Shown here in pieces: positions 46,010-64,000 of a DNA stretch of 64,000 nt (the first letter of the stretch is position 1; every line of letters starts with the position of its first letter). Origin of the DNA: a bacterium. Lineage in GTDB: Bacteria > Zixibacteria > MSB-5A5 > GN15 > FEB-12. Below the pieces are notes generated by a model that did not search any database, had not been told where the DNA came from, and saw only the letters and a program-made list of their open reading frames with translations. The stretch lies in assembly GCA_043811375.1 (NCBI GenBank), contig JBDRNJ010000072.1, positions 64,001 through 128,000 of the forward strand. Reading direction: 5' to 3'. Both the position numbers and the translations under genes were made by a program.

Positions 46010-46084
46010 TACTTTGGTCAGCCGGATGCCTGACCTATATTTACAAGGGAATAGTAGGACACCTCAGTCACAAGGAGCATAGTT

Positions 46085-47140
46085 ATGAGAAGGCGACACA
46101 GTAACATCCTGTTTGGCGGTATCCTCGTTGCCGTCATAATGGGAATCGGGCTGCCGGGCGTAACCGTGGCCCAGGAAGAGGTAACCATCGCCGAAAAGCT
46201 GTCGGAGGCGTTGCAGCTTTACTACCCACCGGAGATGGCTTTCGAAAAGGGGATTGCCATGGCGGAAGAACTGTTCAAGCGGGATGACCTGCTGCCGCAG
46301 GACAGTATCGCCATTTACGAGGTTCTCAGTATCCTGACCTACGCCAAAGGTGAGAAATTCCACCGGCTTTCTTTTAATTACCTGGACAAGATTTCCGGCG
46401 TTGGTCCCTGTGTCATTCAACTGCCCCATGACATCTGGCCGGCTGAGTTAAGGGACAAATGGTATGAGTTGCTCAAAGCCAAAGAAAGCCTGGCCTGTCC
46501 CCAGGATGCCAAATCAGACATCAAGACTCTGGCCATCATGGAGTTTGACAATTTTTCAATCGGCAAGTACCAACAGGAATTAGGGCCGATCGGCAAAGGC
46601 CTGGCTGATTTATTCGAGCATGATTTCAAGAAAATCAGCACTTTACGCATTGTTGAAAGAGACAAAATCAACTACGTGCTCAAGGAGCACGAGTTGCAGC
46701 AATCGGGAGCGGTAGACCGGGCGACGGCGGTCCGGGCCGGTAAGATACTCGGCGCCAAATACATGGTTTTCGGCAGTATCACCCAGGTGGACGATAATCA
46801 CACCCGTATGGTGGTCAAAGTTGTCAGTGTCGAAACATCGGAGATTGTCACCTCCGTTGATCGCGAGGGCAAACCGTTGTACTTCAAGCTGGAGAAGGAA
46901 CTGGTTGAGGAGCTGGCCAAGAAACTTGATATCCAGTTTGACGACGATGTCAGCGCCCTGATCAAACAGGGAGGCACCGAATCGCTCGACGCTACCACCT
47001 TCTATTCCAAGGGATTGGAGTACCAGGACCGTTACGATTACAAGAAAGCTTACGAGTTCTTCAAGAAGGCTTACGACCTGGACAACAGTTTCGTCGAAGC
47101 CAAGCGCAAGATGGAAATTTATGAACCTCTCGCCAGTTAA
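46085..47140 (+). CDS. Exported CsgG/HfaB(TolB-N)-like domain protein with TPR-like ends
   Basis: Signal peptide, LAIMEFDN, IVERDKINYVLKE, AGKILGAKYMVFGSI, and a C-terminal TPR. Confidence 0.75.
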   Translation: MRRRHSNILFGGILVAVIMGIGLPGVTVAQEEVTIAEKLSEALQLYYPPEMAFEKGIAMAEELFKRDDLLPQDSIAIYEVLSILTYAKGEKFHRLSFNYLDKISGVGPCVIQLPHDIWPAELRDKWYELLKAKESLACPQDAKSDIKTLAIMEFDNFSIGKYQQELGPIGKGLADLFEHDFKKISTLRIVERDKINYVLKEHELQQSGAVDRATAVRAGKILGAKYMVFGSITQVDDNHTRMVVKVVSVETSEIVTSVDREGKPLYFKLEKELVEELAKKLDIQFDDDVSALIKQGGTESLDATTFYSKGLEYQDRYDYKKAYEFFKKAYDLDNSFVEAKRKMEIYEPLAS

Positions 47141-47181
47141 GAGCTGACGGGAAGTTATGACCCGCATTCTGAGAGGTAGAG

Positions 47182-48492
47182 ATGTTGATTAAAAACCTGA
47201 CATGGCTGCTGCTGGCGTTGCTGCTGGTCGGGTGTTCTCAAAGCCTGTATATGCAGGGACGTAGACACCTCGAAAAAGGCGATTTTGATCCGGCTATTGC
47301 TGCCTTTTACCAGGAGATTAGTGTCAATCCCACCAGCGCCCGGGCCTGGCGGGAATTGGGAGTGGCTTTCTACGAAAAAGGGGATCTGGCAAAAGCCGAA
47401 GACGCGCTAAAACAGGCCAACCAGATAGCACCCGATGCCCGTACCCATTTGTACTTCGGTCTGATCTACGAACAGCAGGAGGAGTACGGCAAGGCCCTGG
47501 GTGCCTACACCCTGTCGCTGAGCCTGAAACCCGGCGGTAAAACGGCTTCGCTGATCCGGTCGCACCTGGACCGGCTGGTGATGAAAAAACTGGAAAGGGA
47601 TGCTGCGCTGGCTGTCGACAATGAATCGGCCATTGACACCGATACGATTCCGGCCAACACTGTCGCCGTTACCAATTTCGATGGTTCGTCGCTGTCGGCG
47701 GAACTGGCTCCCCTGGCTCGCGGTCTGGCCGAACTCACCTCCATCGATCTGGCTAAAGTGCGCGCCTTGACGGTAGTAGAGAGAACCAAGCTGGATTTGC
47801 TTCTCAGGGAACTGGAACTGGGGGTGTCCGGTGTTGTTGATCCGGCCACGGCTCCCAGGCTTGGCCGCCTGATGGGCAGTCGCAAATTGATTACCGGCTC
47901 GGTGCTTAGTATCGGAGAGGACGGTCTGAAGCTGGATGCGGCCGTAGTCAGCACTATCGACAGTACCACCTTACGACCTGAAGGTGTGGAAGGAGAACTG
48001 ACGAAGTTCTTCCACGCACAGAAACAACTGGTGTTCAGCATACTTGAGGAACTGAGTATCAAGTTGTCGGCCGAGGAACGCGATGCTATCGAAGAAATTC
48101 CCACCGAATCGTTCCTGGCATTTATGGCTTACTCGCGAGGTCTGGAATATCTCAGCCGGGGACCACAGTGGTACGGCGCCGCTGAGCGGGAATTCAAGAA
48201 TGCTGTTGAACATGATGGGAATTTCCAGCCCGCCAGAGAGCAAACCAACACGGTTACACAATTGCAGAATGAAGGCAGCTACGAGCAATCATACAGCCAA
48301 TTTGAAACGACTGTCAGACAGGAAAGCAACCAGGGTGTTGTCTCCTCACGCGGCCTGGATGGCGCCCTTGGCACTGTTGCACATAATTCGGGAATAATCC
48401 CCGGTCCCACCGACCGGCCACCGGCCAACGCCCTGCCGGTAACCGGCCAGACTGTCAGCTTCAAAATCACAGGTGATCTCGATGCACGATAA
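47182..48492 (+). CDS. TPR plus CsgG-like domain lipoprotein
   Basis: Lipobox LVGC, about three TPRs, VAVTNF, VVERTKL and LGRLMGSRKLITGSV. Confidence 0.75.
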   Translation: MLIKNLTWLLLALLLVGCSQSLYMQGRRHLEKGDFDPAIAAFYQEISVNPTSARAWRELGVAFYEKGDLAKAEDALKQANQIAPDARTHLYFGLIYEQQEEYGKALGAYTLSLSLKPGGKTASLIRSHLDRLVMKKLERDAALAVDNESAIDTDTIPANTVAVTNFDGSSLSAELAPLARGLAELTSIDLAKVRALTVVERTKLDLLLRELELGVSGVVDPATAPRLGRLMGSRKLITGSVLSIGEDGLKLDAAVVSTIDSTTLRPEGVEGELTKFFHAQKQLVFSILEELSIKLSAEERDAIEEIPTESFLAFMAYSRGLEYLSRGPQWYGAAEREFKNAVEHDGNFQPAREQTNTVTQLQNEGSYEQSYSQFETTVRQESNQGVVSSRGLDGALGTVAHNSGIIPGPTDRPPANALPVTGQTVSFKITGDLDAR

Positions 48493-49603
48493 TACAGCTG
48501 TCAAATGGACCGGGTCCGTGCTGACCGTCCTGGCGGTGCTTCTGCTGGTGTCGCCGGTGCAGAGCCAGATTCGTTTCGGGCAACCGACGTACGGCGACGT
48601 GCAGATCGTGTACAGCCACTGGAGTTTGAAACAGGCCGATACAACCACGGAAATCAACCAGATGACAATACCGGTTACCGGATTTGTCCCTCTCAAAGAG
48701 AATGTGGAAGCCATTTTCTATATTGTCAGTTCGTCCAATACTTTGAAGGCTTCTCAGACGGATTTCAGTTTGTCGGGAATGGGTGACGCCCGGATGCAGG
48801 TTAACCACTCCTTTATGAATGACCAGTTGCTGCTGAGTCTCGGCGTGAACATGCCGACCGGCAAAAAGAAGCTCACCATCGACGAAGAGTTGCTGGTGGT
48901 ACAAGTGCTTTCGCAGAACTACCTCTCATTCCCAATGCGCCGGTTTGGCGAGGGATTCGGTTTCAGCGCTCTTCTGGGAGGCGCTCAGATGCTGGGCGAT
49001 CTGCGCTGCGGGGTGGGCGTTATGTACCAGGTCAACGGCGAGTATGAACCATACGCCGGTTCTGATAAGTACGACCCGGGAGACGTATTGAGTGTCAATG
49101 CTACGGCCGACTGGCAGAACGACCGTACGACCGTCACCAGTGAGATGATCTTTGCTGCTTATGGTGCCGACAAGTTTGCCGGAAGCAACGCCTTCAAACA
49201 GAGCACACAACTTACCGGACGCCTGCGTGTCGTTCACAAAAGCGAAGCTTTTGATGCGGGGGGAGGTCTGAGCTATCTGGCTCGCGGCCGCAACTCCTTT
49301 TTCTACCCGAATAGTACGCAACGTCTTTTTGGCAACGAGTTTATGATCGATGCCAACCTGACGCGAGGTTTCGCCGAACACTGGCGGTTTACTCCCACCG
49401 CGGAGATTCGAATGATCAGCGCTGCCGAGAATAACCAACCCGGCACCGCCAGTATTGTCGGACTGGGCGGCACTGTCGGCCGAACCTTCGGTTCCCAGAC
49501 CACCATTGCCGTAGGAGGCAAATACTTTACCGGCGATGCCGATGGCGGGAATATAGACCTGAGTGGTTTCCAGATAAACGCCAACCTGACAGTGAGCATG
49601 TAG
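48482..49603 (+). CDS. Outer-membrane beta-barrel protein (MetA-pathway-like LSGMGD/PTG motifs)
   Basis: Signal peptide, alternating amphipathic strands, SGMGD, NMPTGK and YDPGD. Confidence 0.6.
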   Translation: MHDNTAVKWTGSVLTVLAVLLLVSPVQSQIRFGQPTYGDVQIVYSHWSLKQADTTTEINQMTIPVTGFVPLKENVEAIFYIVSSSNTLKASQTDFSLSGMGDARMQVNHSFMNDQLLLSLGVNMPTGKKKLTIDEELLVVQVLSQNYLSFPMRRFGEGFGFSALLGGAQMLGDLRCGVGVMYQVNGEYEPYAGSDKYDPGDVLSVNATADWQNDRTTVTSEMIFAAYGADKFAGSNAFKQSTQLTGRLRVVHKSEAFDAGGGLSYLARGRNSFFYPNSTQRLFGNEFMIDANLTRGFAEHWRFTPTAEIRMISAAENNQPGTASIVGLGGTVGRTFGSQTTIAVGGKYFTGDADGGNIDLSGFQINANLTVSM

Positions 49604-49616
49604 GAAGGTGAGAACT

Positions 49617-50978
49617 ATGTTTGATGCAATTCGTCACAGGCATGTGGGGCACCGGGCGGCTATAGCGCTGGCCATACTCATTCTCCTTGGCTGCTCACAG
49701 ACGGGCAACAACGATGTGAACGCTCCTGCAATGTCGTTGCGCATGGAGATAACTTCGCCGGAGTTGATGAAGTTGGTGACTCAGTTTGAACTGGTGGTCA
49801 CCGGCCCGGGAATGGATTCCATCTTTGCCGAGTTGACACTCGAGGGCCGTTACCTGGTGGGAGAGGTGGATGTCCCGGTGGGGCGTGATCGGAAATTTGA
49901 AATCTTCGCCAGGGATGCCAACGGGCGTGAAATATATCGGGGCGTCATCGTCAAAGATGTGTCCCCCGGCGACCAGGTGGAACTGATCGTCAACCTGTAT
50001 CCGGTGGTGCCGCTGATAAAACTCTCTCCCCGATTCGTGCAGGTGCCGTCAGACTCGTCTGGTTCACTGGATGTCAGGGTCTACAGACTGGACAGTCTTT
50101 TCAACATCTCCTTCAAGGTCTACTCCTCGAGTTACCTGGTGCATCTCGACAGTGCAGTGCTGGGGCCGGATGTTGATCCCAATGACTTTCTGTTAGACCA
50201 GACCAGTGGCGATACCGGGTCTTATTCTATTACGCCGTTAGAAGTACATCGCCTTCCGATAGTTGATGACAGCGGCTACGCCACCCTGGCCTCTATTTAT
50301 TACAGCACTTTCTATCCGGAGATGGGCAGTGATACGGCAGTGTTAACCATCGAACCGACGCTGATGTATAAGACGAATGACGACTCGATCCCGGTGGCCA
50401 GTGTCGTGGCCGACGAAAGTCTGATTCAGATAATACCGAATACCGAGAATCCGGTTATCGTTTTCCCTGATGCACAACTGGATTACGTGGTCCGGCAGGC
50501 CTTGGAACCACCGAAGCCAGAAGGAGCTTTATTCCTGTCGGACGTGCTGACGATCAGCGCACTGTATGCGGGTGTTATATCCGCTGAACCCGCCATCTCT
50601 GACCTGACCGGCTTGCACTACCTGACCAATCTGGTTCATCTGACTCTAACTGACAACGATATCCGTGATATTAGCGAGCTTTCCACCCTGGTTAATCTGG
50701 AAATGCTGTTTCTGGGCAACAACGACTCGATCCAAGACATCACGGCATTATCCGGTCTGACGAAACTGCAACAATTGGGTCTCCAGAGTAATAATATCGT
50801 CGATGTTCGGCCGCTGGCGCTGAATAGTGGCCTCGACAGCAGCGACATAGTGTTTCTTGAAAATAACCCCCTGCAGGACATCACCCAGTTGGTGCCACTA
50901 TGTATCCGCCAGGTGGTTGTGTACCTGCAACCGGAAATCAACTACTGTTCCACTATCGGTCGTGAACCTGGCCCGTGA
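49617..50978 (+). CDS. Lipoprotein with Ig-like, cohesin-like and internalin-type LRR regions
   Basis: Lipobox LLGC, FPDAQL cap, and LRRs LTNLVHLTLTDNDIRDISEL and LTKLQQLGLQSNNIVDV. Confidence 0.7.
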   Translation: MFDAIRHRHVGHRAAIALAILILLGCSQTGNNDVNAPAMSLRMEITSPELMKLVTQFELVVTGPGMDSIFAELTLEGRYLVGEVDVPVGRDRKFEIFARDANGREIYRGVIVKDVSPGDQVELIVNLYPVVPLIKLSPRFVQVPSDSSGSLDVRVYRLDSLFNISFKVYSSSYLVHLDSAVLGPDVDPNDFLLDQTSGDTGSYSITPLEVHRLPIVDDSGYATLASIYYSTFYPEMGSDTAVLTIEPTLMYKTNDDSIPVASVVADESLIQIIPNTENPVIVFPDAQLDYVVRQALEPPKPEGALFLSDVLTISALYAGVISAEPAISDLTGLHYLTNLVHLTLTDNDIRDISELSTLVNLEMLFLGNNDSIQDITALSGLTKLQQLGLQSNNIVDVRPLALNSGLDSSDIVFLENNPLQDITQLVPLCIRQVVVYLQPEINYCSTIGREPGP

Positions 50979-51001: not shown

Positions 51002-51080
51002 CGAATCATGCTCCTGCTGATTATTTCAGCAGGAGCATTCGTTTAGCACAAAAGAAAAGCCGGTCGGGATGACCGGCTTG
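51002..51080. terminator. Two hairpins between the convergent operons
   Basis: ATGCTCCTGCTGA-ttatt-TCAGCAGGAGCAT, and AAGCCGGTC-ggga-TGACCGGCTT preceded by an A-run (minus-strand terminator). Confidence 0.65.
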
Positions 51081-51106: not shown

Positions 51107-51658
51107 CTATTCACGGTCAAACCAGACATCCTCGGTGATTATGGCTTCAAAAGTCGTGGTGGTCGGTATTTCAGCTTCGGAGCCTTTGATGAACAGGCCG
51201 AAGATCAGCAGGTAGGACAACAGCTTGCGTCCTTTCCCATCCGCCGCTATGATCCCCGATCCATCTTCTGTCACCGCGGATAACATAATTGGCTTGTCAC
51301 CCTCGGGTTTGAACTCACCTTTGGGCTGAAGGTCTATCAGCTCCACCTTCAGGAAACCGGGCTTGCCGCCCTTACCTGCGGCCTGCACCGATGTGATCCG
51401 GGCTGATCCGTTGGCACCTTTTTCGACTATCACTACGCCACCGATATCGATGTCGCTTTCGAGCGTAATCTCAACTTCATCACCAGGTTTGACAAACTTG
51501 GACGAAACATCGGCAACAAACTTAACCTGCACTTTACTGCCGGCCGTCACTTGCACTGCGGCCGAGGCGTCAGACACCAATCCCAGTGACAACAACAGCG
51601 CCAGCGCCGCAACCGTCAATCTCGTCAGACCTTTGTTGAGTATTGTTTTTCTTTTCAA
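51107..51658 (-). CDS. Exported VirB10/TrbI-like beta protein (hypothetical)
   Basis: SPI signal (ASA), pattern V(T)AG.....V.SS....GD.V...L..D.......G....I..V..AG..G..G.L.V, a hydrophobic insert, then EIP....F...I..DV. Recognised by eye only. Confidence 0.5.
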   Translation of the reverse strand: MKRKTILNKGLTRLTVAALALLLSLGLVSDASAAVQVTAGSKVQVKFVADVSSKFVKPGDEVEITLESDIDIGGVVIVEKGANGSARITSVQAAGKGGKPGFLKVELIDLQPKGEFKPEGDKPIMLSAVTEDGSGIIAADGKGRKLLSYLLIFGLFIKGSEAEIPTTTTFEAIITEDVWFDRE

Positions 51659-51672
51659 CTCGCACCTCTATG

Positions 51673-53898
51673 TTATTTGAACTTGGGCAATTTTTCCTCA
51701 AGACTCTCCTGGCAACTGATTGTTACCTCACCCGTGTTGAATTTCAGGGTAGCATCCAGGTCAAAGATCGAGTAAGGTTCCTTCAACTCCTCCGATTCCA
51801 TCGGGCTTACTCCCCAGGTCTCCGAACTAGGGTCGGTATGCTTCTTGTCCAGGGCAATCAGAATATGATCACCGTTCTTCCATGTAATCCTGAACTCACG
51901 ACCGGCGATGTACATCGCCTTGGGCCAGTCAGGTTCCTGGCCGGGACGGGTTACACAAACGTGAATGTGATGGTCAGGAGGACAGTTGACGACCTTAAAT
52001 GTGTACGCACGGCTGTTCTTGAAATATTCGACCTGGCTGAGATAGGCGTTAGCGCTGTCTAAGGCACCGCCCTCAAGGTTGGGTCTCAATTTCTTCAATT
52101 TCGTTGGCAAAGTAACCAGCAGGTACTTGGGATCGTCCATTTTCTGTTCGTAGCCGGAAAGAGCACCTGCAAAATCGGAACTGGCCGTCTGGACGGTCTC
52201 TTCCTTGACTGCCACCTGCTCCTGTGTAGCACCCTCGGCCATTAGGGCATCGAGCAACTGCTTCTCTTCCGGACTGAGATCCTGGCCATAGTTTCCGCGA
52301 TCATGTTCAATCTGCCGCAGAATCTGGCCCCAAAGCGAGTCCGAAACGGCAGCAGTCGAGGCCAGGATCGACTGCTTAAACAACTCCCAATAAATCAGCA
52401 CTCGTCCACTGCGAGAATACAGTGGCGACGTGTTATCAAGTTTCTGAAAGTAGGCCAACTCATCTTCAATTCCTAAGTGTGCTGAATCCATCACCAGACT
52501 ATCTCCGCCGGGGTACCGTTGCGGCCAGCTATCCTTGACACCGACGATGTCTCTGACATCAGCTATGACAAGGTTAAGCCGTTTACCAGCCGCTTCTGTA
52601 CCGAGACCTTTATATAGTTCTGCAATCCGGTTAGATGAGACGTGGAATTGATTGTAAAAAGAACGCACTAACCACTTACGGCTATAGCGGTCATAGGTGT
52701 TCTTGATTCGATTGCGCTCCGTGCCAAGGAGGTTGTCTTTCATGAACTTGTGCGCACCGAGAATGTTCTCTTCAACTCGTTCCGTTGTAGACAGCAGGTA
52801 CTGGAAATGATACAGGTTCGGCAAGGAGTAGGCCGCCACCCAGATCAGACTCAATACGGCGGCATATTTGGCTACTTTCCGCAGAATCGATATACGCTTA
52901 TTCCGGGTGATCGTTTTCAGCATCCAGTAAAACGGCTGACGGACTCCGACCGGACTAATTTTGCCCGGCGGCTTGTACAGGGAACGCCCGACCTCGGTGC
53001 CGATTTTTTCGGGTTCCTGTCCGGTGGCGGAGACAAAAAATATCTGGAAGTTCAGCGTACGACCGACCACCACCCGGAGGAATTCCTTGAGCTTGATTAA
53101 AACGTTTCTGACGGAAGCGGCCCACTCGGAATCGGAGGCAATGCGATTGGAATTGAGCACTCTCTCCAGGAAGAACTCATAGTCTTCGGCGAAAAAGTGT
53201 TCATCCTCGGCGGTCACCAGAACCGTCTGCTTGTCAGATCGTTCGGGCGAATAACCGGGCAGGCAATCGGCCTTGGTTACGACCAGCGCCAGCGGAATGG
53301 GCAGGCGTCGGTGCAGCGGAGCCAGTTGTTCCACAAAGTCAATAAAGGAAGCGACATGTGCCTGCGTATGTTCTTCGGAGCCGAGCATCTTGGGATCGTA
53401 GAAAAACACGATGCCGTCACAGCCGGACATAAAGTCGGTCACCTTCTCGGAGAAGTCATGTTTCGGGGAGATGGCCACGGCCTTGCCGTCGTAGTCGTAG
53501 GCAACTACCTTTATCTTTTTCTTGCGGTCTACGACTGCGGTGAACTGCAGAACTCTCTCGCCTTTGGTCGGCACGGGAAATTTCTTGTCTTCGCGGAGAT
53601 CGACCACCGTACCCTCATTGCTGGCCGTCCCCACTCCCCAAATATGCCGGAAATTGGCCAGTAAAACACCGGCCGTAGCGCCGTCGGTGACTGAAATTTG
53701 CAGATCCCGCGATATCTTGCTATCCTCGTTGAGGACGGTGTAATAGACGGTCTTGCCGCAGTTGGCGTGACCATAGACGCCTATTCGCACACCGGCCGGC
53801 CATTCAAAGCCGCCTTCGGCGGGAGCACCCTTAGCCTGGCGCTTGGAGGCCGCTTTGGCGCCTTTCTTGAAGAACTTGAATATCTTGCCGAATTTCAC
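51673..53898 (-). CDS. Membrane-anchored TRAFAC GTPase, TssM/IcmF-like topology
   Basis: G1 GHANCGKT, G3 DYDG, G4 LVVTKADCLPGY, G5 VSAT, then a TM segment at about aa 345-365 and a long helical C-terminal region. Confidence 0.65.
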   Translation of the reverse strand: MKFGKIFKFFKKGAKAASKRQAKGAPAEGGFEWPAGVRIGVYGHANCGKTVYYTVLNEDSKISRDLQISVTDGATAGVLLANFRHIWGVGTASNEGTVVDLREDKKFPVPTKGERVLQFTAVVDRKKKIKVVAYDYDGKAVAISPKHDFSEKVTDFMSGCDGIVFFYDPKMLGSEEHTQAHVASFIDFVEQLAPLHRRLPIPLALVVTKADCLPGYSPERSDKQTVLVTAEDEHFFAEDYEFFLERVLNSNRIASDSEWAASVRNVLIKLKEFLRVVVGRTLNFQIFFVSATGQEPEKIGTEVGRSLYKPPGKISPVGVRQPFYWMLKTITRNKRISILRKVAKYAAVLSLIWVAAYSLPNLYHFQYLLSTTERVEENILGAHKFMKDNLLGTERNRIKNTYDRYSRKWLVRSFYNQFHVSSNRIAELYKGLGTEAAGKRLNLVIADVRDIVGVKDSWPQRYPGGDSLVMDSAHLGIEDELAYFQKLDNTSPLYSRSGRVLIYWELFKQSILASTAAVSDSLWGQILRQIEHDRGNYGQDLSPEEKQLLDALMAEGATQEQVAVKEETVQTASSDFAGALSGYEQKMDDPKYLLVTLPTKLKKLRPNLEGGALDSANAYLSQVEYFKNSRAYTFKVVNCPPDHHIHVCVTRPGQEPDWPKAMYIAGREFRITWKNGDHILIALDKKHTDPSSETWGVSPMESEELKEPYSIFDLDATLKFNTGEVTISCQESLEEKLPKFK

Positions 53899-53937: not shown

Positions 53938-54867
53938 TCATCTGGGCTTCCAGTCTATATGATTCCGCTGGTCAAGTTGCTCCAAGCGATCCCGGCCATG
54001 CTCGCTCCACATGATCGGTACATAGATGGCCAGCAGCACAAACAGCACAATCAGCAGCCCGTAAAACAGATAAGCCGGGTTACGCTGTGACAAAACCAGA
54101 CCGAAATAACGCCAACTGGAGAAGACACCCCGAATCTTTCCCCAGAGTTCCCCGAAAAAACCCTTCACCCGCAACCAGAAACGCGGATCCGTCAGGTAGC
54201 CCCACTGTTTCAGATAGTACTCATTGAGCCTGCTTTTCTGACGCAACTTATTAAACGCTGCAATCCGCTTGAGATGAAACTCAAGCGTGGTTCGATCAGC
54301 CAGGAGATCCGAGCCAAGCTGCAGGCGACGCCGGGCCAGCTGAAGAATTTTCATCGGATCGGTAAGACCGCCGAACTGTTCCGGGCTCAGGTCGGTCTGC
54401 AGGCTTCTGCCGTAGCGATTCAGATAGAGCGCAATCTCGCTTAAGAAAAACGAATTCAGGCTAACGTTGTCGTTGAGGCCGCCCTGTCGAAACAGCAACG
54501 GGACCAGATGATTTTCAAAAAAAGGCACATCCTGTTTGACGGCGCGAACCCCGCGGCACATGCTGTAAGCATGGTTGGAGAGACCGTCGATGTCGGCTTC
54601 CGACTCAAAAAACGTAATCAGCAACTGAATTGTCAGTTGTCGCAGGTCGGAGGCGGTTAACGACGATTGTTTGATTTTCTCCAGGAAGATCTCGTCTAAA
54701 GCCACTGCCTTGTCGCGCTGCTTCCGGAGTGCCTGGAAAACGGCGCGGATACCCCGGTAGTTCTGCAGAAAAGCTTCCGTCTGGAACTGCGCGTAGCTGC
54801 GCTCATAGGTATCCAGATACTTGAAGAGGTTATCAACGTGCGATCTGACAGCTAAACTTTCATCCAT
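53938..54867 (-). CDS. Helical protein with a single C-terminal TM segment (TssL/DotU-like topology)
   Basis: Directly follows tssK; TM segment YLFYGLLIVLFVLLAIYVPIMW near the C-terminus. Confidence 0.5.
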   Translation of the reverse strand: MDESLAVRSHVDNLFKYLDTYERSYAQFQTEAFLQNYRGIRAVFQALRKQRDKAVALDEIFLEKIKQSSLTASDLRQLTIQLLITFFESEADIDGLSNHAYSMCRGVRAVKQDVPFFENHLVPLLFRQGGLNDNVSLNSFFLSEIALYLNRYGRSLQTDLSPEQFGGLTDPMKILQLARRRLQLGSDLLADRTTLEFHLKRIAAFNKLRQKSRLNEYYLKQWGYLTDPRFWLRVKGFFGELWGKIRGVFSSWRYFGLVLSQRNPAYLFYGLLIVLFVLLAIYVPIMWSEHGRDRLEQLDQRNHIDWKPR

Positions 54868-54880
54868 CCCGGTACACATC

Positions 54881-56329
54881 CTACATAGCGTAAACAATCA
54901 GATCAGATTTACCCAGACCGGTAAACTTGCCGGCGTCAGGCGCTCCCCTGAAGATCAGTGTAACCTGACGCACCGCCGGTGAGCGCAGCATGTCCTGGGG
55001 ACGCAGGGCAATTTTGTTTTCAAACGTGACCACGTCAACCTCGATGGGATCCGTCTCGCCCAGTCCGCGGGCATCATTGAGCCCCAGACGCACCAGCATA
55101 CTGGACCACTCCCCGCTGCTGAAGAGGTCTTTGGCTATCAGTATCACGGTGTCGGATATGGGACAGGGTTCGGGAATGTCAATCAGCAGGTAAGCCAACT
55201 CACCGACCTGCTCCAGCCGGGTTCCCCCGTATTCCACGATGCGGTACGTTCTTCCCTGGTAGGTGAGAGTATCGGTGGCGACCGCCTGCTGGCCGAGGTC
55301 TTCTTTTTTCACCTGCGCCAAAAAGCCCATGATCCCACGAACCTGACCGAGAATCTCGTCAATAACCGACAGATGTCCGCCCAGGTCACGGTGGTTGTAT
55401 TCGGCCATCAGAAAACCATCCACCATAGACATGAATCGGCCCACTTCAGTGTTGGCCTGTTTGACAAAGAAACGTTCGTTCAGGAAATCCTTCAGACCGG
55501 GCCGGAGATTCAGCAGCGTCGTGAACGCGCGAAACAACTTCTTGAAAAACACTACCAGATGAAGCGGGTGTTGAGCGTTCCTGCCGACGACAAGCTCGTC
55601 CAGGGTTGAGGAGAGATGATAGGCAAATTGAAATATGGTTTCCTTAAAAGCAGTCTGCAAATCCGTCTGCTCACCGGCCAGGACACCTCCGGCCGCCACA
55701 GCCTTATACGCCTGTGACGACAAGGACAGCAGTTTTTCCAGCCGGTTGTGAAAATCGAGAGTCTTCTTTGATAACCGCTCATCGGCAGCGAGAGTCAGAC
55801 AGGGCGGAAAGTAATTCTGATCGGCAGTTACCTCGCTGCCATCGACAATCACCTGAGCGATTTGCAGAGAACTCCCTTCGGGAACCTGGGGCGGCCGACC
55901 CAGGGCCAGCCGGTAACTGTTGACCAGATACGGAATGCGGGGCAGGTCGTCGGCCGGGTCCGGGTCGCCGACTTCCTTTCGGGCGGTCGGATCGATCCCA
56001 ATGAAGACGGGCACGACACCCTGTTCAACATCCATCTCAGCCGTTACGCTGCCGTGATTGGATTCGTTTATTTCAATAACGCCACCATCAGGCGTCAACG
56101 CCTGACAACGCACAACCTCCACCCCCAGACGATTGGAACTGGCCGAAAGATTGAGACTCAAGGCTGGTCTCCCCGAGAAAGTCTTGCGTACCAGACCATA
56201 GCGATCGTCTGCAGTCAGTGCGTGCCAGCGGGCCAACTCCTGAAAGTACTTTTCCTGGTCTTTGAGATGTTGCTGAGTCACCAACATCCCATCCTGCCAG
56301 TTCACCGAATATAAGTGCAAGTCACTCAT
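54881..56329 (-). CDS. tssK: T6SS baseplate subunit TssK (subtype iii-like)
   Basis: VNWQDGMLVTQQHL...YGL, CQALTPDG, VGDPDP...PRIPY and YFPPC. Confidence 0.85.
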   Translation of the reverse strand: MSDLHLYSVNWQDGMLVTQQHLKDQEKYFQELARWHALTADDRYGLVRKTFSGRPALSLNLSASSNRLGVEVVRCQALTPDGGVIEINESNHGSVTAEMDVEQGVVPVFIGIDPTARKEVGDPDPADDLPRIPYLVNSYRLALGRPPQVPEGSSLQIAQVIVDGSEVTADQNYFPPCLTLAADERLSKKTLDFHNRLEKLLSLSSQAYKAVAAGGVLAGEQTDLQTAFKETIFQFAYHLSSTLDELVVGRNAQHPLHLVVFFKKLFRAFTTLLNLRPGLKDFLNERFFVKQANTEVGRFMSMVDGFLMAEYNHRDLGGHLSVIDEILGQVRGIMGFLAQVKKEDLGQQAVATDTLTYQGRTYRIVEYGGTRLEQVGELAYLLIDIPEPCPISDTVILIAKDLFSSGEWSSMLVRLGLNDARGLGETDPIEVDVVTFENKIALRPQDMLRSPAVRQVTLIFRGAPDAGKFTGLGKSDLIVYAM

Positions 56330-56482: not shown

Positions 56483-57394
56483 TTACACAAAGGAAGAGTA
56501 CCCCAGAAAACGGTTTTCCCGGTTGCGGCCAAGGACAAAGCCACGCCCGTCGACCGTAATTTTTACCCGGCAGGCCATATTGTTGGGCATACACGTGCTC
56601 AGCATCCATTCCAGTTTGCGTCTTTGAAGCTGTCCGGGAAGAAGGCGGCGCACGTCGGCGGTGCTGACCCCGCGGATATGAAGTTCGTAGGCAGAATCGC
56701 ATTCCTTGAATGACCGGCCGATCAGAAAATCGCGGCCCAAAGCGCTTGACTTTCCCAGGCGAGATTGAATTTGGTCCGGGATAACATGCTCGGTGGACAC
56801 GTTTTCCACCATCCGGAAATCATACCCGAATATGCGGCGGAGAACTTTCTCGATCATTTTGGAATTGCCGGCCCATCTGTGAAAACGGGGCATAACCGAG
56901 ACCCAGAACAATATCTCGTCGACATCATCAGTGGGAGTGAAAGGCTTAAATCCAAACAACTCCAGATACCTCAGCAGGTGATCGATATCAACCACACCGA
57001 ATGCATACCGCAGTCGGTCATATCGGGCCAGTCCGTCATGACGAATGACGGCGGCATCGAACGGCGCCATCAGATGGCGGGCTTTCTCTTCCCAGGCACC
57101 GGTTCGGGGTATCACACCCTGCAAGCCGTAGAACATCTGGTAGGGCAGATAGTCCACGGCGCTGATACAGCCGACTTCCAGCATAATTTTAGTGTCGTCG
57201 CCGAGTTCCGTGCCCGGACCGGGTTTCTGCCGCCGGACTTCACCACGGTAATTTTCATATTCCCCGACCGCCAGAATATCCACATTCCGGATTTCTACAC
57301 CCATTTGCTTCAGTACGCTGAGAGCGGTGGCAAAATGGAAAGGCTGCCGCCGGGAGCAGAAATCCGGCATGACTTTAGGTTCCACCACGTTCAT
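56483..57394 (-). CDS. tssG: T6SS baseplate subunit TssG
   Basis: LPYQMF...EKARHLMAPFD...GN....KVL...LG.DFLIG pattern; follows tssF with an ATGA overlap. Confidence 0.7.
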   Translation of the reverse strand: MNVVEPKVMPDFCSRRQPFHFATALSVLKQMGVEIRNVDILAVGEYENYRGEVRRQKPGPGTELGDDTKIMLEVGCISAVDYLPYQMFYGLQGVIPRTGAWEEKARHLMAPFDAAVIRHDGLARYDRLRYAFGVVDIDHLLRYLELFGFKPFTPTDDVDEILFWVSVMPRFHRWAGNSKMIEKVLRRIFGYDFRMVENVSTEHVIPDQIQSRLGKSSALGRDFLIGRSFKECDSAYELHIRGVSTADVRRLLPGQLQRRKLEWMLSTCMPNNMACRVKITVDGRGFVLGRNRENRFLGYSSFV

Positions 57395-59055
57395 GGCCGG
57401 AGAATCTCCACCTGGAACTGGGTATTGATCGGCGAACGCGACTTGAGAAAACTTGTCAGACGCTTCCGCAACAAGTTGATTTCATCTTCACAATGAAACC
57501 GGTCATGCTCGACATTGACTCGAACAACTATACAGCGTCGGACGCCACGGGGTCCCCGCTCGACACCATTGGAGCATTCGGCTTTTTTTATCCGGGGGTC
57601 AAAGGTGAGCGTCCAGTCGGCCAGTTCCGGAAAGCCCAAAGCTCGATCTCGGTTACGCAGCCGGGAGGTAACCTCGGTTACGATTTGCGCCTCTGTCCTG
57701 GCCGGGACCGCCCCGGTCGTGGGGATAATGTTTTCGACCGCTTCTATCCCGGGGTGACTGTCGTATAGTTCGTTGATTTCGCCGATCTCAATGCCGTTGG
57801 CGCTCACTCCTTCCGTAACCGTGTAAGTAACGGAGATAGAATCGGGCGGTTGGTCGATACCGGTGGCGAAATCAAACCACAGCACCAGTTTCCCCTGCCG
57901 GTCCTCCAGCGAATAATGGCCGCCCCGGTGATCAGGGTGTATCTGATGTACGGCCACATACTCCCGACCATCAGTATCAACCACACCGGTGATATCCAAG
58001 ATGTCGGCTATAGGTTCGGGCAGTTCCACTTCCACCAGCCGGTTGGAACCGGTATGCTTAAACAGTTTCAATTCGTTTTTATTGACGGCGATCAGAGCGT
58101 CAAAGCAGAAGTCCAGGGGCGATTTGAAATCGGATCGATCACCACCGGCCGGGAGGTCAAGTCGCACCCAGTAGTGATTCTCCCGGAGAGTATCGCTGCT
58201 TATACCGCTGCCGTCAAGCTGCCGCAGCAACCGGGGATCGGGTGTGCCCATCTCCCAGGTTACCGCGAATGACTCAGGAAGCGTGACGAAGCCGTCTTCC
58301 AGCGGTCCGAATAACTCGGCACCGGTTCTCAGACCACCCCAGTCACGGTCATCTCCGTCGACGCCCACAACATCGTCAATACTGCTGGTTAATCCCGGAC
58401 AGAAACCACAATCCTCATAGAATGAACCCTGGCGTGAACCGGGGTACCAGCGCGCCCACCGCAACCGGCGTTGGATCGGCAGTGAAGCTTTCAGGAACAA
58501 CACGGCTCCGGCCAAATCAGACGGCTTACCACTGTAGTCAACCGCGACATATAGCTGACTGGGATCAGCCGACGTGTCCCGGACGTTCGCCGGTGGCGTT
58601 ACCGGGGCAGCCCCCGGCTGCCGGGGTGACAGGTCGATTACCCGGTCACCCTGCTTCAGGAAAACATGTTTCACACTGGCGGCGAACACCCTTTCGTTCT
58701 TCAGGGGAGAGAAATAGAGTGTTCGCCCTCCTTCACGTTTTTCCTTGTAGAAGAAACGGGTGTGCGTGTCAACTTCGACCACCGGATCTATCGGCCGGCA
58801 GCGCACCACCGTGTGAGCCGGGATCGGCCATCGGCTGCACTCGGGGGCCAGCGATCTGATCAATGCGCCGGCTGCATATTGCCAGGTTCCGTGAAGCTTG
58901 TCATCGATACCGGCCAATTGGTACGAGTATAGCTGCAAGAAAATTCTAACCAGCGGGTCCAGTCGTTCCGGCGACTGAGGTACCTGGCTGTCGAAAGACC
59001 GCAACTGGCGGTGCATGTCACTGAATATCTGTTCCGGCGATCGTGTTCGACTCAT
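57391..59055 (-). CDS. tssF: T6SS baseplate subunit TssF
   Basis: DPLVRIFL...LAPE...PIPAHTV...FSP, and a gp6-like C-terminus (GVSANG, RLRNRDRA). Confidence 0.78.
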   Translation of the reverse strand: MSRTRSPEQIFSDMHRQLRSFDSQVPQSPERLDPLVRIFLQLYSYQLAGIDDKLHGTWQYAAGALIRSLAPECSRWPIPAHTVVRCRPIDPVVEVDTHTRFFYKEKREGGRTLYFSPLKNERVFAASVKHVFLKQGDRVIDLSPRQPGAAPVTPPANVRDTSADPSQLYVAVDYSGKPSDLAGAVLFLKASLPIQRRLRWARWYPGSRQGSFYEDCGFCPGLTSSIDDVVGVDGDDRDWGGLRTGAELFGPLEDGFVTLPESFAVTWEMGTPDPRLLRQLDGSGISSDTLRENHYWVRLDLPAGGDRSDFKSPLDFCFDALIAVNKNELKLFKHTGSNRLVEVELPEPIADILDITGVVDTDGREYVAVHQIHPDHRGGHYSLEDRQGKLVLWFDFATGIDQPPDSISVTYTVTEGVSANGIEIGEINELYDSHPGIEAVENIIPTTGAVPARTEAQIVTEVTSRLRNRDRALGFPELADWTLTFDPRIKKAECSNGVERGPRGVRRCIVVRVNVEHDRFHCEDEINLLRKRLTSFLKSRSPINTQFQVEILRP

Positions 59056-59087: not shown

Positions 59088-59462
59088 TCAGGCCAGGGTG
59101 TAACTGGCCTGAAATTTTTTCTCTTCATTGCCGTCCCGGTAGTTCCCGCTGACCTTTACCACCAGACCCAGCGCGTGGGATCGGTTATCACCCAGGCTCA
59201 CGAAAGACACCGATACATCCGACAGCCGTTTCTCAAACTTGTCGATGGCGTTGCGTAAGCTGGATCTGATGTCAGCTTTGTTGGCCACAATGATATCGGA
59301 GTATTCCTTCTCCCAGAGACTACAGCCGAATTCGCGATTGAAGGGTATCATGCCGACCCGCGTGGACAAAAGCAGACCGATGGAGTATTGCAACGACTGG
59401 TGCAGGTCAGTTCGGGGCAGGTAGCCATCACGCAGGATCAGCGGTAGTGCCAGGTACTCCAT
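59088..59462 (-). CDS. tssE: gp25-like baseplate protein TssE
   Basis: Motifs SIGLLLSTRVG, EFGCSLW and AIDKFEKRL. Confidence 0.85.
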   Translation of the reverse strand: MEYLALPLILRDGYLPRTDLHQSLQYSIGLLLSTRVGMIPFNREFGCSLWEKEYSDIIVANKADIRSSLRNAIDKFEKRLSDVSVSFVSLGDNRSHALGLVVKVSGNYRDGNEEKKFQASYTLA

Positions 59463-59471
59463 GGTTCGGGC

Positions 59472-61238
59472 TCAGTTGATCTTGACCAGGGTGCCTTTTA
59501 CGGTCACTATGGCGCCGCCTTCCAGAGTGGCGTTGAGACCGGCCTTGACATCACAGTTCATACTTCCCTCGGCTTTCAGACTACCTCCGGCTTTCAGTTG
59601 GGTATCCCGGGTGCTCTCAATGGACACTCCAGCCTGTGACTTGACGGTTACATCACCGCTGGTGCTCTCGAGGCTTATATTGGCACCTTTGAGGCTTATG
59701 TCTCCGTCACTCTCAATACTGATTTTGGGGCCGTCGAGTGTCAGAGTAATGGCGTTCTTGTTGTCCTTCTGCACGACAACAATTGACTCGGAACCGGAGG
59801 TGTCGTCGAAATAGATCTCGTTGCCGCTTTTGGTACGGAAGAGTTTGAGGTTATTGTCGGCGCCGCTCCAGCTAACCGGATGGTCCAGCGGGGGTACATC
59901 CCTGCCGTTGTACAAACTGCCCAGCACCAGTGGTTGCGACGGTCGCCCCTGTTCGTAAGCGATCAGCACCTCATCATCAACCTCCGGCAGACAAAACAAG
60001 CCTTTTTTTTCGCCGGCGTGATGAGTAAGCACCCGCAGCCAGACATCCGGCTCGGCGGCCGATCCACCCTTGACATTCCAGTGCAGTTTCACCTTAACGC
60101 GGCCGAGCTGGTCGGGATCATCGGTGTCCGTCACCAACGCCGTCTGCAGGTCCGTAAATGGTCTCGCCATGAATTTGCGTTCGGGAAAGGCCAGGTCCAG
60201 CGGTGTGCATACAAACGTATTATGATACTTGCCGCTTTCGTCAAAGAGATGGCTAACCGATTTAACCCAGAAGTTGCCGTCCATCTGATCCATGCCCTTG
60301 ATTTTGACGCAACGACCCGCTTTGATCGCCGGAACAATCGACAATCCCCGGCAGGTCACTATTCGGCCGACGGCGCTCTCCCTGACCAGGGTCAGCGCGT
60401 CATCGAGCTCGGACTGGCTGGCTGCCTGGTGTCGCGGCGAGAAGTTCGCTGACGCATACATTTCCTGCGAGGCGTCGTGAGCAACTTTCGACATATCCGA
60501 CAGCGATGTTCTTAGGGCGCCGGAGGTCTCACTGTCAAAGACCTCTTTCTTGGGATAGTTGAAGGCCTGGGAACATATTTTTTCAGGACCGGTGCCCAGT
60601 CCCATGGCAAATGATCCCAGTGTCTCCCGCCAGACAAGTTCTTCGCTGTCGGCACTGCCGGCTTTGGCCAGGTGAAACTCCTGGCCGTCATAGAATGCGA
60701 ACATCCCGGCCGTTGAGGCCAGCCGCATGATGTAGCGGTAGTCCGTTTCACGATACTGCACACTGTACGCCAGCGTACCGTTGGTTGATTCGATTTTGCC
60801 TACCGTAACCGGGTAATTACCGATGATACTGTTGACAATGTCACTGGCGCTTTGTTCGTGGTACAGTGCATTCTGGCCCGCGCCATCGGCCGCGATAGTC
60901 GGGCTGTGCGCGGTCACCAGCACCGTGTTCAAGCCGTCGATGCTGTTGTCCAGGTTTACCTGAGTGACCATTCCCACGAACTCCAGCAGCCGGCCGGAAT
61001 CCACCACTCCCCCCAGAGGCGTGATAGTCACCGCCACGGACTTGCCCAGGAAAGCCGTAAATGTGGTCGGATCACCAAAGTCCCGGTCCGCAGCCACCTT
61101 GCCCAGTTGTCGCAGACGAACCTTTAGAACATGATGATCATCCACGAACTGATCCAGCTGGACCGACGAGATATCGTGCTTGATCTCTTTGCCGTCAATG
61201 CGAATCCGGCATTCCGCCGAAGTCTGTAGTGTTGCCAT
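59472..61238 (-). CDS. vgrG: VgrG spike protein, no C-terminal extension
   Basis: Motifs VQYRETDY, DPDQLGRVKV, LPEVDDEV.IAYEQG.P..P.VLGSLY and RTKSGNEI, plus gp5 beta repeats ending VKIN. Confidence 0.92.
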   Translation of the reverse strand: MATLQTSAECRIRIDGKEIKHDISSVQLDQFVDDHHVLKVRLRQLGKVAADRDFGDPTTFTAFLGKSVAVTITPLGGVVDSGRLLEFVGMVTQVNLDNSIDGLNTVLVTAHSPTIAADGAGQNALYHEQSASDIVNSIIGNYPVTVGKIESTNGTLAYSVQYRETDYRYIMRLASTAGMFAFYDGQEFHLAKAGSADSEELVWRETLGSFAMGLGTGPEKICSQAFNYPKKEVFDSETSGALRTSLSDMSKVAHDASQEMYASANFSPRHQAASQSELDDALTLVRESAVGRIVTCRGLSIVPAIKAGRCVKIKGMDQMDGNFWVKSVSHLFDESGKYHNTFVCTPLDLAFPERKFMARPFTDLQTALVTDTDDPDQLGRVKVKLHWNVKGGSAAEPDVWLRVLTHHAGEKKGLFCLPEVDDEVLIAYEQGRPSQPLVLGSLYNGRDVPPLDHPVSWSGADNNLKLFRTKSGNEIYFDDTSGSESIVVVQKDNKNAITLTLDGPKISIESDGDISLKGANISLESTSGDVTVKSQAGVSIESTRDTQLKAGGSLKAEGSMNCDVKAGLNATLEGGAIVTVKGTLVKIN

Positions 61239-61311: not shown

Positions 61312-61722
61312 TTATTCCTCCCAGCGATTATCAATCTCGGAGTCACCCACTGTCAACTTGTGGCAAGAGACTTCGAAATACTGATATATCTGTTCATCAG
61401 GGCGGTCTTTAACGTGCGGAATAACCTCTTCGTATTTGGTGATGAATCCTTCCTCCCAGACCAACTCCTTCATGGTAGCGTCATCGGGGTTCTTGAACGT
61501 CACCTTGCCACCCTTCCAGTTGGGTTTGCTGGTGTCCATCGCCCAGCGGGCGATATCTACATTACCCTCTTTGTCGGACTCAACTTTTATTTTGATGGTC
61601 CCGGCGTGGGCACGATCCGAGGGACGTCCCGTCTCATCCTTGGCCGTGTACAGGTCGTAAGAAACTTCATACACATTCTTGTAGGTTACGCCATCGATTT
61701 CGAGAACTGGTCTGCGTGCCAT
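61312..61722 (-). CDS. tssD: T6SS tube protein TssD/Hcp (subtype iii type)
   Basis: DETGRPS....GTI.I.VES.......W......K.G.VTF...MKEL.....I.KYEE pattern. Confidence 0.88.
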   Translation of the reverse strand: MARRPVLEIDGVTYKNVYEVSYDLYTAKDETGRPSDRAHAGTIKIKVESDKEGNVDIARWAMDTSKPNWKGGKVTFKNPDDATMKELVWEEGFITKYEEVIPHVKDRPDEQIYQYFEVSCHKLTVGDSEIDNRWEE

Positions 61723-61791: not shown

Positions 61792-63222
61792 TTACTTGTC
61801 CTTTACGTTCGTCTGGTTGTCCTCGTTCCAGGCGGTGAACTCGATGTTAAACGAACGAGCCGGATACTTCGGGTTCAGAGCTACCTTGATGTCGATTTCC
61901 TGCCGTTTGCGCATTTCCTCGTCGGCGACAATCAAGACCTGGTAGTCCTGCAGAATATTGTCGCCGCCGCTTATCGCATTCATGAACTTGTCGATATCGC
62001 GGCGCATGGTATCAACGAATTTCTGATCAATAACCGAGAAGGTCTGCTTGTTGAGATAGTTGCGCAGAGTTTTGTAGACGTAGTCGTAGGTGCGCCGGAT
62101 CGAGTATACGTTGAACGTCTCCTTGCTGAACAGTGTCGAAGCGCCCATGGCCACTGCCGTTCCTTCGAAATTGACCATCGGGTTAATGCCCTTTTCATTG
62201 ATCTTGCTGGCATCTGGCTGGTTGGCCTTGAAACGCAGGTACTTGGCATCGGCAATCTTACCGTGCTTGTAACCGGCCATCGGCTGTTGCATGCCGACCG
62301 TCGTATCGCCCTGATACATCTTTCCGGCCACTGCCGCTGAGGGTGGGATCCACATGTCGTCATCTTCGTATTGGTTGGCGCCCCGGGCCAGCAGGTAGTT
62401 TGCAAAGACAGAGGCATACTGTTTGTAGTTGTCAATCCCCGGCAGGTTGGCATAGTTCGGGTCTTCCAGCATGTCCATCAGTTCTTCGAACTTCTCGAAG
62501 TTGGGCAGGTCCGTCATCACGTGGACCTTATTAGCCAGGCCCAGTTGTCGGGCCACCATGTCTATATTCTCCACACTACCCAAATAGCCGGGAATCACCG
62601 CCATCGAGAAGCATTCCTTAATACTCCACTCGCGGTAGAGATCGGCGATGGCCTTGGTCAACTGCTCAAACTTCTCCTTGTCGTCGGGGTCAGTCAACTC
62701 ATCACCCGAGACATTGGCAAACCAGGCGTTAACTTTTTCGTCCGGTTCCAGTTGGGCGTTGGCGAAGAACTTGTCGATAGCCCGGTAGGTGGTTTCTATT
62801 TCGCGGCTGGCCCGGTGGACCTTTTTCATGTTCTTGTCGAGATTGGCTTCCAGTTTAGTCGCCTGTTCATTGAGATTCTTGCGGATGTCGTCGATATTGT
62901 CACTTTGGGACAGGTTCTCAATCCACACCTTGAGCCGCTCGGCCAGCAGCTTGCGCTGGGTAGCGAAGTTCTTTTTGGTCAGGAATTCCTTACGTTGGAA
63001 GTCCTTCTTGGGGTCAAGCCATTCGACCCCCCGCACCAGGTCACCATCGGCCGTCTTAAACGACGGCAAGAGGCCGGCTAACTTGCTGAAGTCACCGAAA
63101 GAATCACTGAGTATCGAGGCAAACTCTTCTTCAGAGACTTTTTCAGCGGCGGGGGCCTCGGGTTTTGCTTCGGCGGCCTGTTCCGGCTGCGGTTGCGGTT
63201 GATTTTTTTCCTCTTCACCCAT
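61792..63222 (-). CDS. tssC: T6SS sheath large subunit TssC (DUF5458-like)
   Basis: Motifs ETTYR...FF.N, IPGYLGS, ANYLLARG, WIPPSAAVAGKMY and Q...G.KHG. Confidence 0.88.
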   Translation of the reverse strand: MGEEEKNQPQPQPEQAAEAKPEAPAAEKVSEEEFASILSDSFGDFSKLAGLLPSFKTADGDLVRGVEWLDPKKDFQRKEFLTKKNFATQRKLLAERLKVWIENLSQSDNIDDIRKNLNEQATKLEANLDKNMKKVHRASREIETTYRAIDKFFANAQLEPDEKVNAWFANVSGDELTDPDDKEKFEQLTKAIADLYREWSIKECFSMAVIPGYLGSVENIDMVARQLGLANKVHVMTDLPNFEKFEELMDMLEDPNYANLPGIDNYKQYASVFANYLLARGANQYEDDDMWIPPSAAVAGKMYQGDTTVGMQQPMAGYKHGKIADAKYLRFKANQPDASKINEKGINPMVNFEGTAVAMGASTLFSKETFNVYSIRRTYDYVYKTLRNYLNKQTFSVIDQKFVDTMRRDIDKFMNAISGGDNILQDYQVLIVADEEMRKRQEIDIKVALNPKYPARSFNIEFTAWNEDNQTNVKDK

Positions 63223-63245: not shown

Positions 63246-63686
63246 CTACTCACTCAGCAGGTCGATATAGTATTGGGCTGCTTTCAGCAGCGCTTCTTTT
63301 TTTTCTTTGTCTTTCAGTGTCTTCTTAAGAGCATTATTCTTCTTCAGTTGCTTGTCCAGGTCCGTCATCATTTCCTTGCGGTAGTATGTTTTCTGAAGGT
63401 GGTCGTTCTTTTCGACGAGCTCCTTGGAAGTGAAATCTTTCATCGCCTTAATCTCAAAGTCGGCATTGATCGGTTCGCCCTCTTCGGTCTCCAGTTCGGT
63501 CGAGAAAGACGGGTGGAATTTCTCAAAAACCTCTTTGAGATTGTTGCACCTGACTGGCGATACATCCACTTCTTCGTCGCTGTTCAAGCGAGCAGCGTAG
63601 AGCAGCTTATTGGACGGCAGGAGTTCAACCGGAACGGAATCGTCTCTTTGGATCCGTTCAGTTGCTCCCAGCATGAATTTTGCCAT
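63246..63686 (-). CDS. tssB: T6SS sheath small subunit TssB
   Basis: P.NK.L....L...EVFE.F.P....E.E.EEG...DF pattern, and QLKKNNALK. Confidence 0.82.
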   Translation of the reverse strand: MAKFMLGATERIQRDDSVPVELLPSNKLLYAARLNSDEEVDVSPVRCNNLKEVFEKFHPSFSTELETEEGEPINADFEIKAMKDFTSKELVEKNDHLQKTYYRKEMMTDLDKQLKKNNALKKTLKDKEKKEALLKAAQYYIDLLSE

Positions 63687-63707: not shown

Positions 63708-64000
63708 TTACTTCGAATCTGACATTTTTTTGCTGTTAAACACGTAGGTATCATCCTCGACTTCAATCATGATGTCATCACCCGGTGACACCTTCCCGGT
63801 GATAATGTCCACCGATAACCTGTTGATAATGTCCCTTTCGATAATGCGTTGAATGGGGCGGGCGCCGAGTTCAAAAGTGTATCCGTCGACCGCCAGTTTA
63901 TGTTGAGCCTCGGGACTGAGTGTGACGTGGACGTTCTGGTCTTTCAACAATTGGCAGACCTGGTCGAATTCCAGACCGGCGATAACCTCGACCTGTTCCT
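63708..64000 (-). CDS. Clp AAA+ ATPase C-terminus (probably TssH/ClpV), 5' part beyond the window
   Basis: Frame is open to the right edge; GYTFELGARPIQRIIER (D2-small domain); lies directly upstream of tssB. Confidence 0.75.
   Translation of the reverse strand, partial: EQVEVIAGLEFDQVCQLLKDQNVHVTLSPEAQHKLAVDGYTFELGARPIQRIIERDIINRLSVDIITGKVSPGDDIMIEVEDDTYVFNSKKMSDSK

Follow-up and report, generated by a model that had tools for sequence, protein, structure and literature searches.

A membrane GTPase of 741 residues is encoded on the minus strand at positions 51673..53898 of the window analysed here, a 64,000-nucleotide stretch of contig JBDRNJ010000072.1 from a Zixibacteria genome; all coordinates below refer to this strand unless marked otherwise. 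Our analysis revealed that this protein, a DO-GTPase2-clan GTPase with a single membrane pass and a GTG start codon, is a real and conserved component of an undescribed type VI secretion system (T6SS) variant. Our literature search found no paper on a T6SS bearing this GTPase. We propose, with a probability of about 0.6, that it forms the inner-membrane core of a non-canonical T6SS envelope complex, in which it plays the role of TssM by convergence, and that this complex belongs to T6SS-iii-like systems of Zixibacteria and a second uncultured phylum and was recruited from a DO-GTPase/GAP1-N2 module.

The GTPase gene is last but one in the operon clpV-tssB-tssC-hcp-vgrG-tssE-tssF-tssG-tssK-[319 residues]-[741-residue GTPase]-[183 residues]. 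The operon contains the Bacteroidota-type tail and baseplate set (TssB, C, D, E, F, G, K, H, and I) and is of the Bacteroidota type, T6SS-iii-like. Among the best 80 of 117 genome loci, the 319-residue gene was directly upstream of the GTPase in 77 of 78, and the 183-residue gene was directly downstream in all 73 loci with room for it. A survey of the phylum (201 genomes) gave a strong GTPase match in 105 genomes and TssC in 104, all within the 105; in the sole GTPase-positive genome without TssC, tssC of the same operon is broken. In the second phylum (151 genomes), TssC was found in 16 of 16 GTPase-positive genomes, and one further genome gave only a weak TssC match. The 183-residue family was present in 101 of the 105 GTPase-positive genomes; the other four are fragmented assemblies in which the GTPase match is truncated. 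One relative that has a canonical TssM/TssL system lacked both the GTPase and the 183-residue genes. Named GTPase homologues were mostly from Zixibacteria, with more distant records labelled Krumholzibacteriota and Eisenbacteria. The outcome that the original prediction had named as telling against it, homologues mostly outside contractile-system loci, was not observed: the family is nearly exclusive to genomes with contractile systems.

Some loci departed from this arrangement. The GTPase was unlinked from tssB-K in five genomes (G085, G079, G063, G174, and G191), where the 319-residue gene remained with tssK and the 183-residue gene adjoined the GTPase in four. Where it is displaced (L169, 9364-16334; L193; L194; L175), the GTPase lies after tandem lipoprotein genes (PD40 beta-propeller or Ig-like); a PAAR fusion comes next after it in two cases. 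At L189 (G161:C51), a genome of the same family has a canonical T6SS-i with TssM, TssL-like, and TssA-like genes in place of the GTPase system. A broken tssC in G125 (L171, 18043-19498) reflects either decay or an assembly error.

These distributions also bear on whether the GTPase is a passenger that merely lies next to the T6SS, either a module for conflict or defence or an accessory in effector delivery. DO-GTPase/GAP1 pairs are mobile conflict modules according to the available part of PMC7159879, and the PAAR genes that adjoin the displaced GTPase of G085 and G174 would suit such a role. However, none of the 352 genomes searched carried the GTPase without tssC, except the one in which tssC was broken, and the gene is single copy and fixed in position with no variable effector genes adjoining it. 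We therefore regard a passenger role as very improbable.

The source genome, which is about 95% complete, contained no match over cut-off to IcmF-N, DotU (TssL), TssJ, or TssA. It likewise contained none to TssN, TssO, or TssR, although these models had no positive control, and TssP and TssQ were not searched. Since neither TssM, TssL, and TssJ nor TssN, TssO, and TssR were found over cut-off, the original description of the protein as a stand-in for TssM/IcmF is plausible with respect to its role, but not with respect to its kinship.

Sequence, topology, and family placement of the GTPase

The protein comprises an amphipathic N-terminal helix, a GTPase domain (residues 35-335), a predicted transmembrane (TM) helix (residues 342-360, 52819..52875), a helical periplasmic region (residues 363-625), and a C-terminal beta-rich domain (residues 626-741, 51676..52023). 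The segment MKFGKIFKFFKK is located at the N-terminus, where an 11-residue window ranked 4 of 731 by hydrophobic moment. The motifs are G1/Walker A, GHANCGKT (residues 43-50, 53749..53772); G3/Walker B, DYDG (residues 135-138), followed by K139 (53482..53496); G4, TKAD (residues 208-211, 53266..53277); and G5, VSAT (residues 289-292, 53023..53034). In an alignment of 119 homologues (43-59% identity, from the best 120 of 252), G43, G48, K49, D135, G138, K209, and S290 did not vary, and D211 was kept in 118, so that the motifs are no accidental matches. These four motifs and the basic amphipathic N-terminus lie where the original prediction had placed them. It did not list a G2 motif; the candidate for G2/switch I is FPVPT (residues 107-111, 53566..53580), whose T111 (FPxPT) is Thr or Ser in all 119 homologues. 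G1, a candidate G2 Thr, G3 DxxG, G4 (N/T)KxD, and G5 are present in order and conserved, as in TRAFAC-class GTPases.

In this copy the TM helix is weak, with a Kyte-Doolittle value of 1.42, while the same site scored at least 1.6 in 103 of the 119 homologues. Six Lys/Arg residues precede the helix and one follows it, and this positive-inside bias supports a cytoplasmic GTPase domain. About 380 residues lie beyond the helix. The proposed relation to TRAFAC GTPases, the single TM helix with about 375 residues beyond it, and the inner-membrane topology are all in agreement with these results.

Profile comparisons, made without context pseudocounts, placed the GTPase far closer to DO-GTPase2 than to TssM. 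The GTPase family aligned over 224 columns (E 2e-32) with a DO-GTPase2 family of GTPase-TM-helical-beta layout, and over 117 columns covering G4-G5 (E 9e-6) with TssM, which bears out the “double-GTPase” lead of the original prediction. The C-terminal beta domains of the GTPase family and the DO-GTPase2 family also aligned (E 2e-7). The kinship of this domain is with the C-terminus of a DO-GTPase2 family labelled Gemmataceae, and not with the periplasmic part of TssM. A hidden Markov model of the GTPase family scored a median of 83.5 bits on the DO-GTPase2 family (119 of 119) and 7.7 bits on TssM, where 102 of 120 were reported with a top score of 18.9. Unrelated P-loop proteins in the genome gave as much as 13 bits, and the TssM scores on this scale are near the generic P-loop background. 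Among 29 distant relatives, Pfam found DO-GTPase2 in 27, at or above cut-off in 16, and IcmF-related_N in 5, below cut-off and confined to the TKxD region; no match to the IcmF-related N-terminal domain passed the Pfam cut-off in the GTPase itself. A low-confidence structural model of the GTPase had 9 of its 10 nearest Atlas models in DO-GTPase-annotated clusters and none in IcmF clusters. As judged from its sequence, the GTPase is a DO-GTPase derivative and not a TssM, with a faint common root with TssM being possible. The proteins P0207 and P0336-P0454 form a large family of DO-GTPase2-TM proteins of about 720 residues, two of them named Gemmataceae, with the layout of the GTPase and a related C-terminal domain.

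The likeness of LPIPLALVVTKADCLPGY (residues 199-216) to the PVY..TKxDL..GF stretch of IcmF-N, pointed out in the original prediction, is real; however, it is limited to G4-G5, and close kinship with IcmF-N is unsupported. The protein could in principle be a shortened, very divergent TssM orthologue, with the 319-residue protein as TssL. The gene order mimics tssK-L-M, a GTPase-type domain precedes a TM helix in both proteins, TssM contains hhhhDxxG and (N/T)KxD and can hydrolyse both ATP and GTP (in the available part of PMC3346141), and both the G4-G5 similarity, which is above noise, and the weak IcmF-related_N matches in 5 of 29 distant members would agree with this. In contrast, DO-GTPase2 is far closer, and genes for a GAP1-N2 partner occur in deep branches of the family, as does the DO-GTPase glutamate. 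Residues 362-741 show no similarity to the periplasmic part of TssM, nothing past the TM helix aligning (profile-profile Prob 0.1; no Pfam or NCBIfam match), and the 319-residue family gave a Prob of 1.7 against one TssL sequence and a DotU match in 0 of 14 members. A distant root shared by TssM and DO-GTPases is possible, yet it would not amount to orthology, which we consider quite unlikely.

GAP1 partner genes and the Walker-B glutamate

In the available part of Kaur et al. 2020 (PMC7159879), the defining features of DO-GTPase systems are a DO-GTPase that carries a glutamate in Walker B and a GAP1 gene downstream of it, and mention is made of GAP1-N2-type GTPases that have a C-terminal TM helix and extracellular beta-sandwich domains. 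In divergent members of our GTPase family, the gene after the GTPase matched GAP1-N2 in 9 of 9 tested, 5 of them over cut-off. The T6SS locus of G267, a genome with two hcp genes, has, in this order, a homologue of the 319-residue protein, the GTPase, which passes both DO-GTPase cut-offs, a GAP1-N2 fusion, and a homologue of the 183-residue protein. GAP1-like genes were found in 20 of the 201 genomes of the phylum, and additionally in G267 and G251; the source genome and 72 genomes of its family had none. Inside T6SS loci, GAP1-N2 occurs fused to about 870 unannotated residues (L199, 7108-10134; L201, 386-3430). A GAP1-like gene is broken in G190 (L172, 12369-13179) and also in G003, either by decay or by an assembly error.

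The original prediction overlooked the residue after the G3 glycine, which we take to correspond to Ras Q61. It is Lys in this GTPase (K139) and Glu in the GAP1-bearing relatives. The 119 close homologues have mainly K (56), R (19), D (18), N (8), and Q (6) at this position, and the Walker-B glutamate in only 4, whereas the glutamate was present in 9 of 9 GAP1-bearing and 1 of 22 GAP1-less sequences. A tree built from 50 sequences required two changes to account for the lack of GAP1; each clade was well supported, the deep nodes were weak, and one GAP1-less clade was sister to GAP1-bearing sequences. With two events, this is suggestive at most.

Because both the Walker-B glutamate and GAP1 were lost in this lineage, the description of the GTPase as “apparently active” in the original prediction is not upheld. 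The invariant nucleotide-binding residues predict that the protein binds nucleotide. In GAP1-bearing lineages, the switch is probably still cycling under the control of GAP1; in the present lineage, nucleotide binding with slow or oligomer-dependent hydrolysis would be more likely.

A putative three-protein envelope complex

The 319-residue membrane protein (53938..54897, probably starting at Met11), encoded between tssK and the GTPase, is tail-anchored with a TssL-like topology. The exported 183-residue protein (51107..51658) has the VirB10/TraB/DotG (VirB10/TrbI) C-terminal barrel fold (compared with 6GYB, 3JQO, 6ODI, and 7OKN), although Pfam gave no TrbI match by sequence; its hydrophobic hairpin (residues 145-157) was kept in 26 of 26 aligned members, and the protein is a candidate outer-membrane element. 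No VirB9 was found in the genome. Stand-alone mini-VirB10 proteins occur at L204 (1492-2166) and L209 (2890-3501), with no secretion genes adjoining in the stretches seen.

In the proposed mechanism, the three proteins would replace TssJLM/TssNQOPR. The GTPase domain would lie on the cytoplasmic face, anchored by the amphipathic helix and the TM helix, and together with the 319-residue protein would form the docking site for TssK. The helical periplasmic part would oligomerise into a conduit, and the C-terminal beta domain would contact a ring of the 183-residue mini-VirB10, whose hydrophobic hairpin would insert into the outer membrane. GTP binding may switch the assembly or opening of the complex. 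A connector gene beside tssK is reported for both known types of T6SS membrane complex in the available part of PMC10781749, and TssM uses its GTPase-type domain for assembly and secretion according to that of PMC3346141. Together with the combination of IcmF, DotU, and DotG in Dot/Icm, these precedents make the proposed layout plausible by analogy.

A more far-reaching version is tentative, and we give it somewhat less than an even chance: this would be a third, independently built T6SS envelope complex made of borrowed parts, with GAP1 and the Walker-B glutamate lost together twice. With similar reserve, its parts may be a DO-GTPase taken from a conflict system that acts as a GTP-gated conduit in the inner membrane, a new tail-anchored adaptor for TssK, and a VirB10 barrel from type IV secretion that gates the outer membrane. 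Equally tentatively, intermediates with the order K-adaptor-GTPase-GAP1-miniVirB10 may survive in deep branches.

The GTPase could instead be a sensor or trigger, in which a DO-GTPase module senses envelope attack via its periplasmic domain and licenses firing, the channel being mostly made of other proteins. DO-GTPases are proposed to be switches that license effector deployment, some with a TM helix and an extracellular beta-sandwich (PMC7159879, available part), and the GTPase gene can leave the tssB-K cluster. Moreover, conservation is lower in the periplasmic part (0.49-0.53) than in the GTPase domain (0.75), and the length of the periplasmic part differs among distant family members. A sensor, however, would leave the T6SS without any recognisable membrane complex, and the retention of the GTPase with TssC is nearly total. 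The alternative channel genes (a CsgG/TPR and barrel operon) occur in families without T6SS and were not found in the T6SS-bearing families f9 and f14. We consider a sensor unlikely.

Several points weigh against the GTPase as the core of an envelope complex. Related genomes are not independent, so that the co-occurrence counts reflect fixation rather than repeated origin, and the linkage to T6SS amounts to guilt by association among related genomes. The unlinked GTPase in five genomes suits a separable accessory module just as much as it suits a core part. The 183-residue protein has relatives without the system, in 11 of 96 GTPase-negative genomes and on a Sphingobium plasmid; this protein has no known TssJ- or VirB7/VirB9-like partner, and an Hcp tube may or may not pass through a VirB10-type ring. 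A very divergent TssNOPQR set is possible. The docking, conduit, and gating contacts of the three proteins are inferred, including the gate for baseplate docking suggested in the original prediction, and the TM hydrophobicity of this copy is only moderate. With respect to family placement, the GTPase scored 23.5 bits for Pfam DO-GTPase2 against a cut-off of 27, which it reached only when summed, and the DO-GTPase2 comparison family was taken from the query's own matches.

Operon organisation and comparison with known systems

In the window, the operon begins with the C-terminal end of ClpV/TssH (63708..64000, continuing past the window), followed by TssB, the sheath small subunit (63246..63686), the sheath protein TssC (61792..63222; Bacteroidota-type model PF17541, E 1.6e-71), Hcp (61312..61722; Bacteroidota-type model PF17642), the VgrG spike (59472..61238), TssE/gp25 (59088..59462), TssF (57391..59055; a weak Pfam match, E 0.009, under cut-off, with a consistent position), TssG (56483..57394), and the baseplate subunit TssK (54881..56329). 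A consensus scan found a terminator-like hairpin at the operon end (51057..51079). ClpV consists of two open reading frames (486 and 368 residues) with a 4-base overlap (window 63708-64000; G000:C72, 127708-130271, minus strand); the split recurs in G191 (L191), and ClpV is one open reading frame in G304 (L202) and G174 (L195). Upstream of clpV, beyond the window (G000:C72, 130495-136288, minus strand), five genes encode a PAAR fusion (367 residues) and proteins of 379, 307 (HEAT-like), 297, and 388 residues, a candidate effector/adaptor cassette. A convergent operon (window 44333-50978, plus strand) encodes a PEGA-bearing Ser/Thr kinase, two CsgG/TPR proteins, a 376-residue protein that resembles a barrel, and an LRR lipoprotein. 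It adjoins in 33-39 of 80 loci and is possibly a signalling accessory; a second paralogue of the 376-residue barrel is on C10, and this barrel is also found in families without T6SS.

The DO-GTPase/GAP1-N2 conflict systems (PF19993, PF20013) share with the GTPase a TRAFAC domain of the same clan and the GTPase-TM-extracellular beta layout, and with its deep branches the directly downstream GAP1-N2 and DxxGE. Unlike those systems, this GTPase is single, has no zinc ribbons and no FNIII, tubulin, or HSP70 partners in view, and is fixed in a T6SS operon without GAP1 and the glutamate. Among the window neighbours there was no FNIII/GASH component and no variable effector, no genome-wide search having been made. 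DO-GTPases are not linked to T6SS in the available part of PMC7159879.

TssM/IcmF of T6SS-i and Dot/Icm (PF14331, PF06761, PF21070, PF06744) has in common with the GTPase a cytoplasmic GTPase-type domain, a TM helix, a periplasmic helical and then beta region, a place after tssK and a tail-anchored gene, and the weak G4-G5 similarity. In contrast to TssM (about 1130 residues), the GTPase has 741 residues, an amphipathic helix where TssM has N-terminal TM helices, and no TssJ; TssM has Arg after DxxG in 118 of 120 sequences, unlike the GTPase family. The Bacteroidota T6SS-iii with TssNQOPR (PMC10781749) resembles the present system in its TssC and Hcp models, the lack of a detected TssA, and membrane genes of unknown function beside tssG-tssK. 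However, TssNQOPR is described without a GTPase in the available part of that paper, and no TssN, O, or R passed cut-off here, with models lacking a positive control. The 183-residue protein shares the fold of the VirB10/TraF/TraB/CagY/DotG C-terminal domain of type IV secretion, with a hydrophobic insert at the site of the VirB10 outer-membrane antenna; unlike those proteins, it lacks a long periplasmic linker, its hairpin is short, its genome has no VirB9, and it is encoded in a T6SS operon. The nearest architectural parallel is Dot/Icm, which combines IcmF, DotU, and DotG in one machine (10.1101/2023.03.22.533729, available part).

The available part of PMC10781749 describes T6SS-iii as restricted to Bacteroidota, counts two unrelated membrane complexes for T6SS, and leaves open which of them is ancestral or whether each was co-opted separately. 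If our proposal is correct, T6SS-iii-like systems extend beyond Bacteroidota, and a third membrane solution on the Bacteroidota-type tail, whose donor family can be traced and whose intermediates survive, would speak for co-option having occurred repeatedly and independently. It would also provide the first concrete cellular job for DO-GTPases. The three-protein envelope complex would be small enough for reconstitution, and the joint loss of the glutamate and GAP1 would offer a direct handle on whether GAP1 activates these GTPases.
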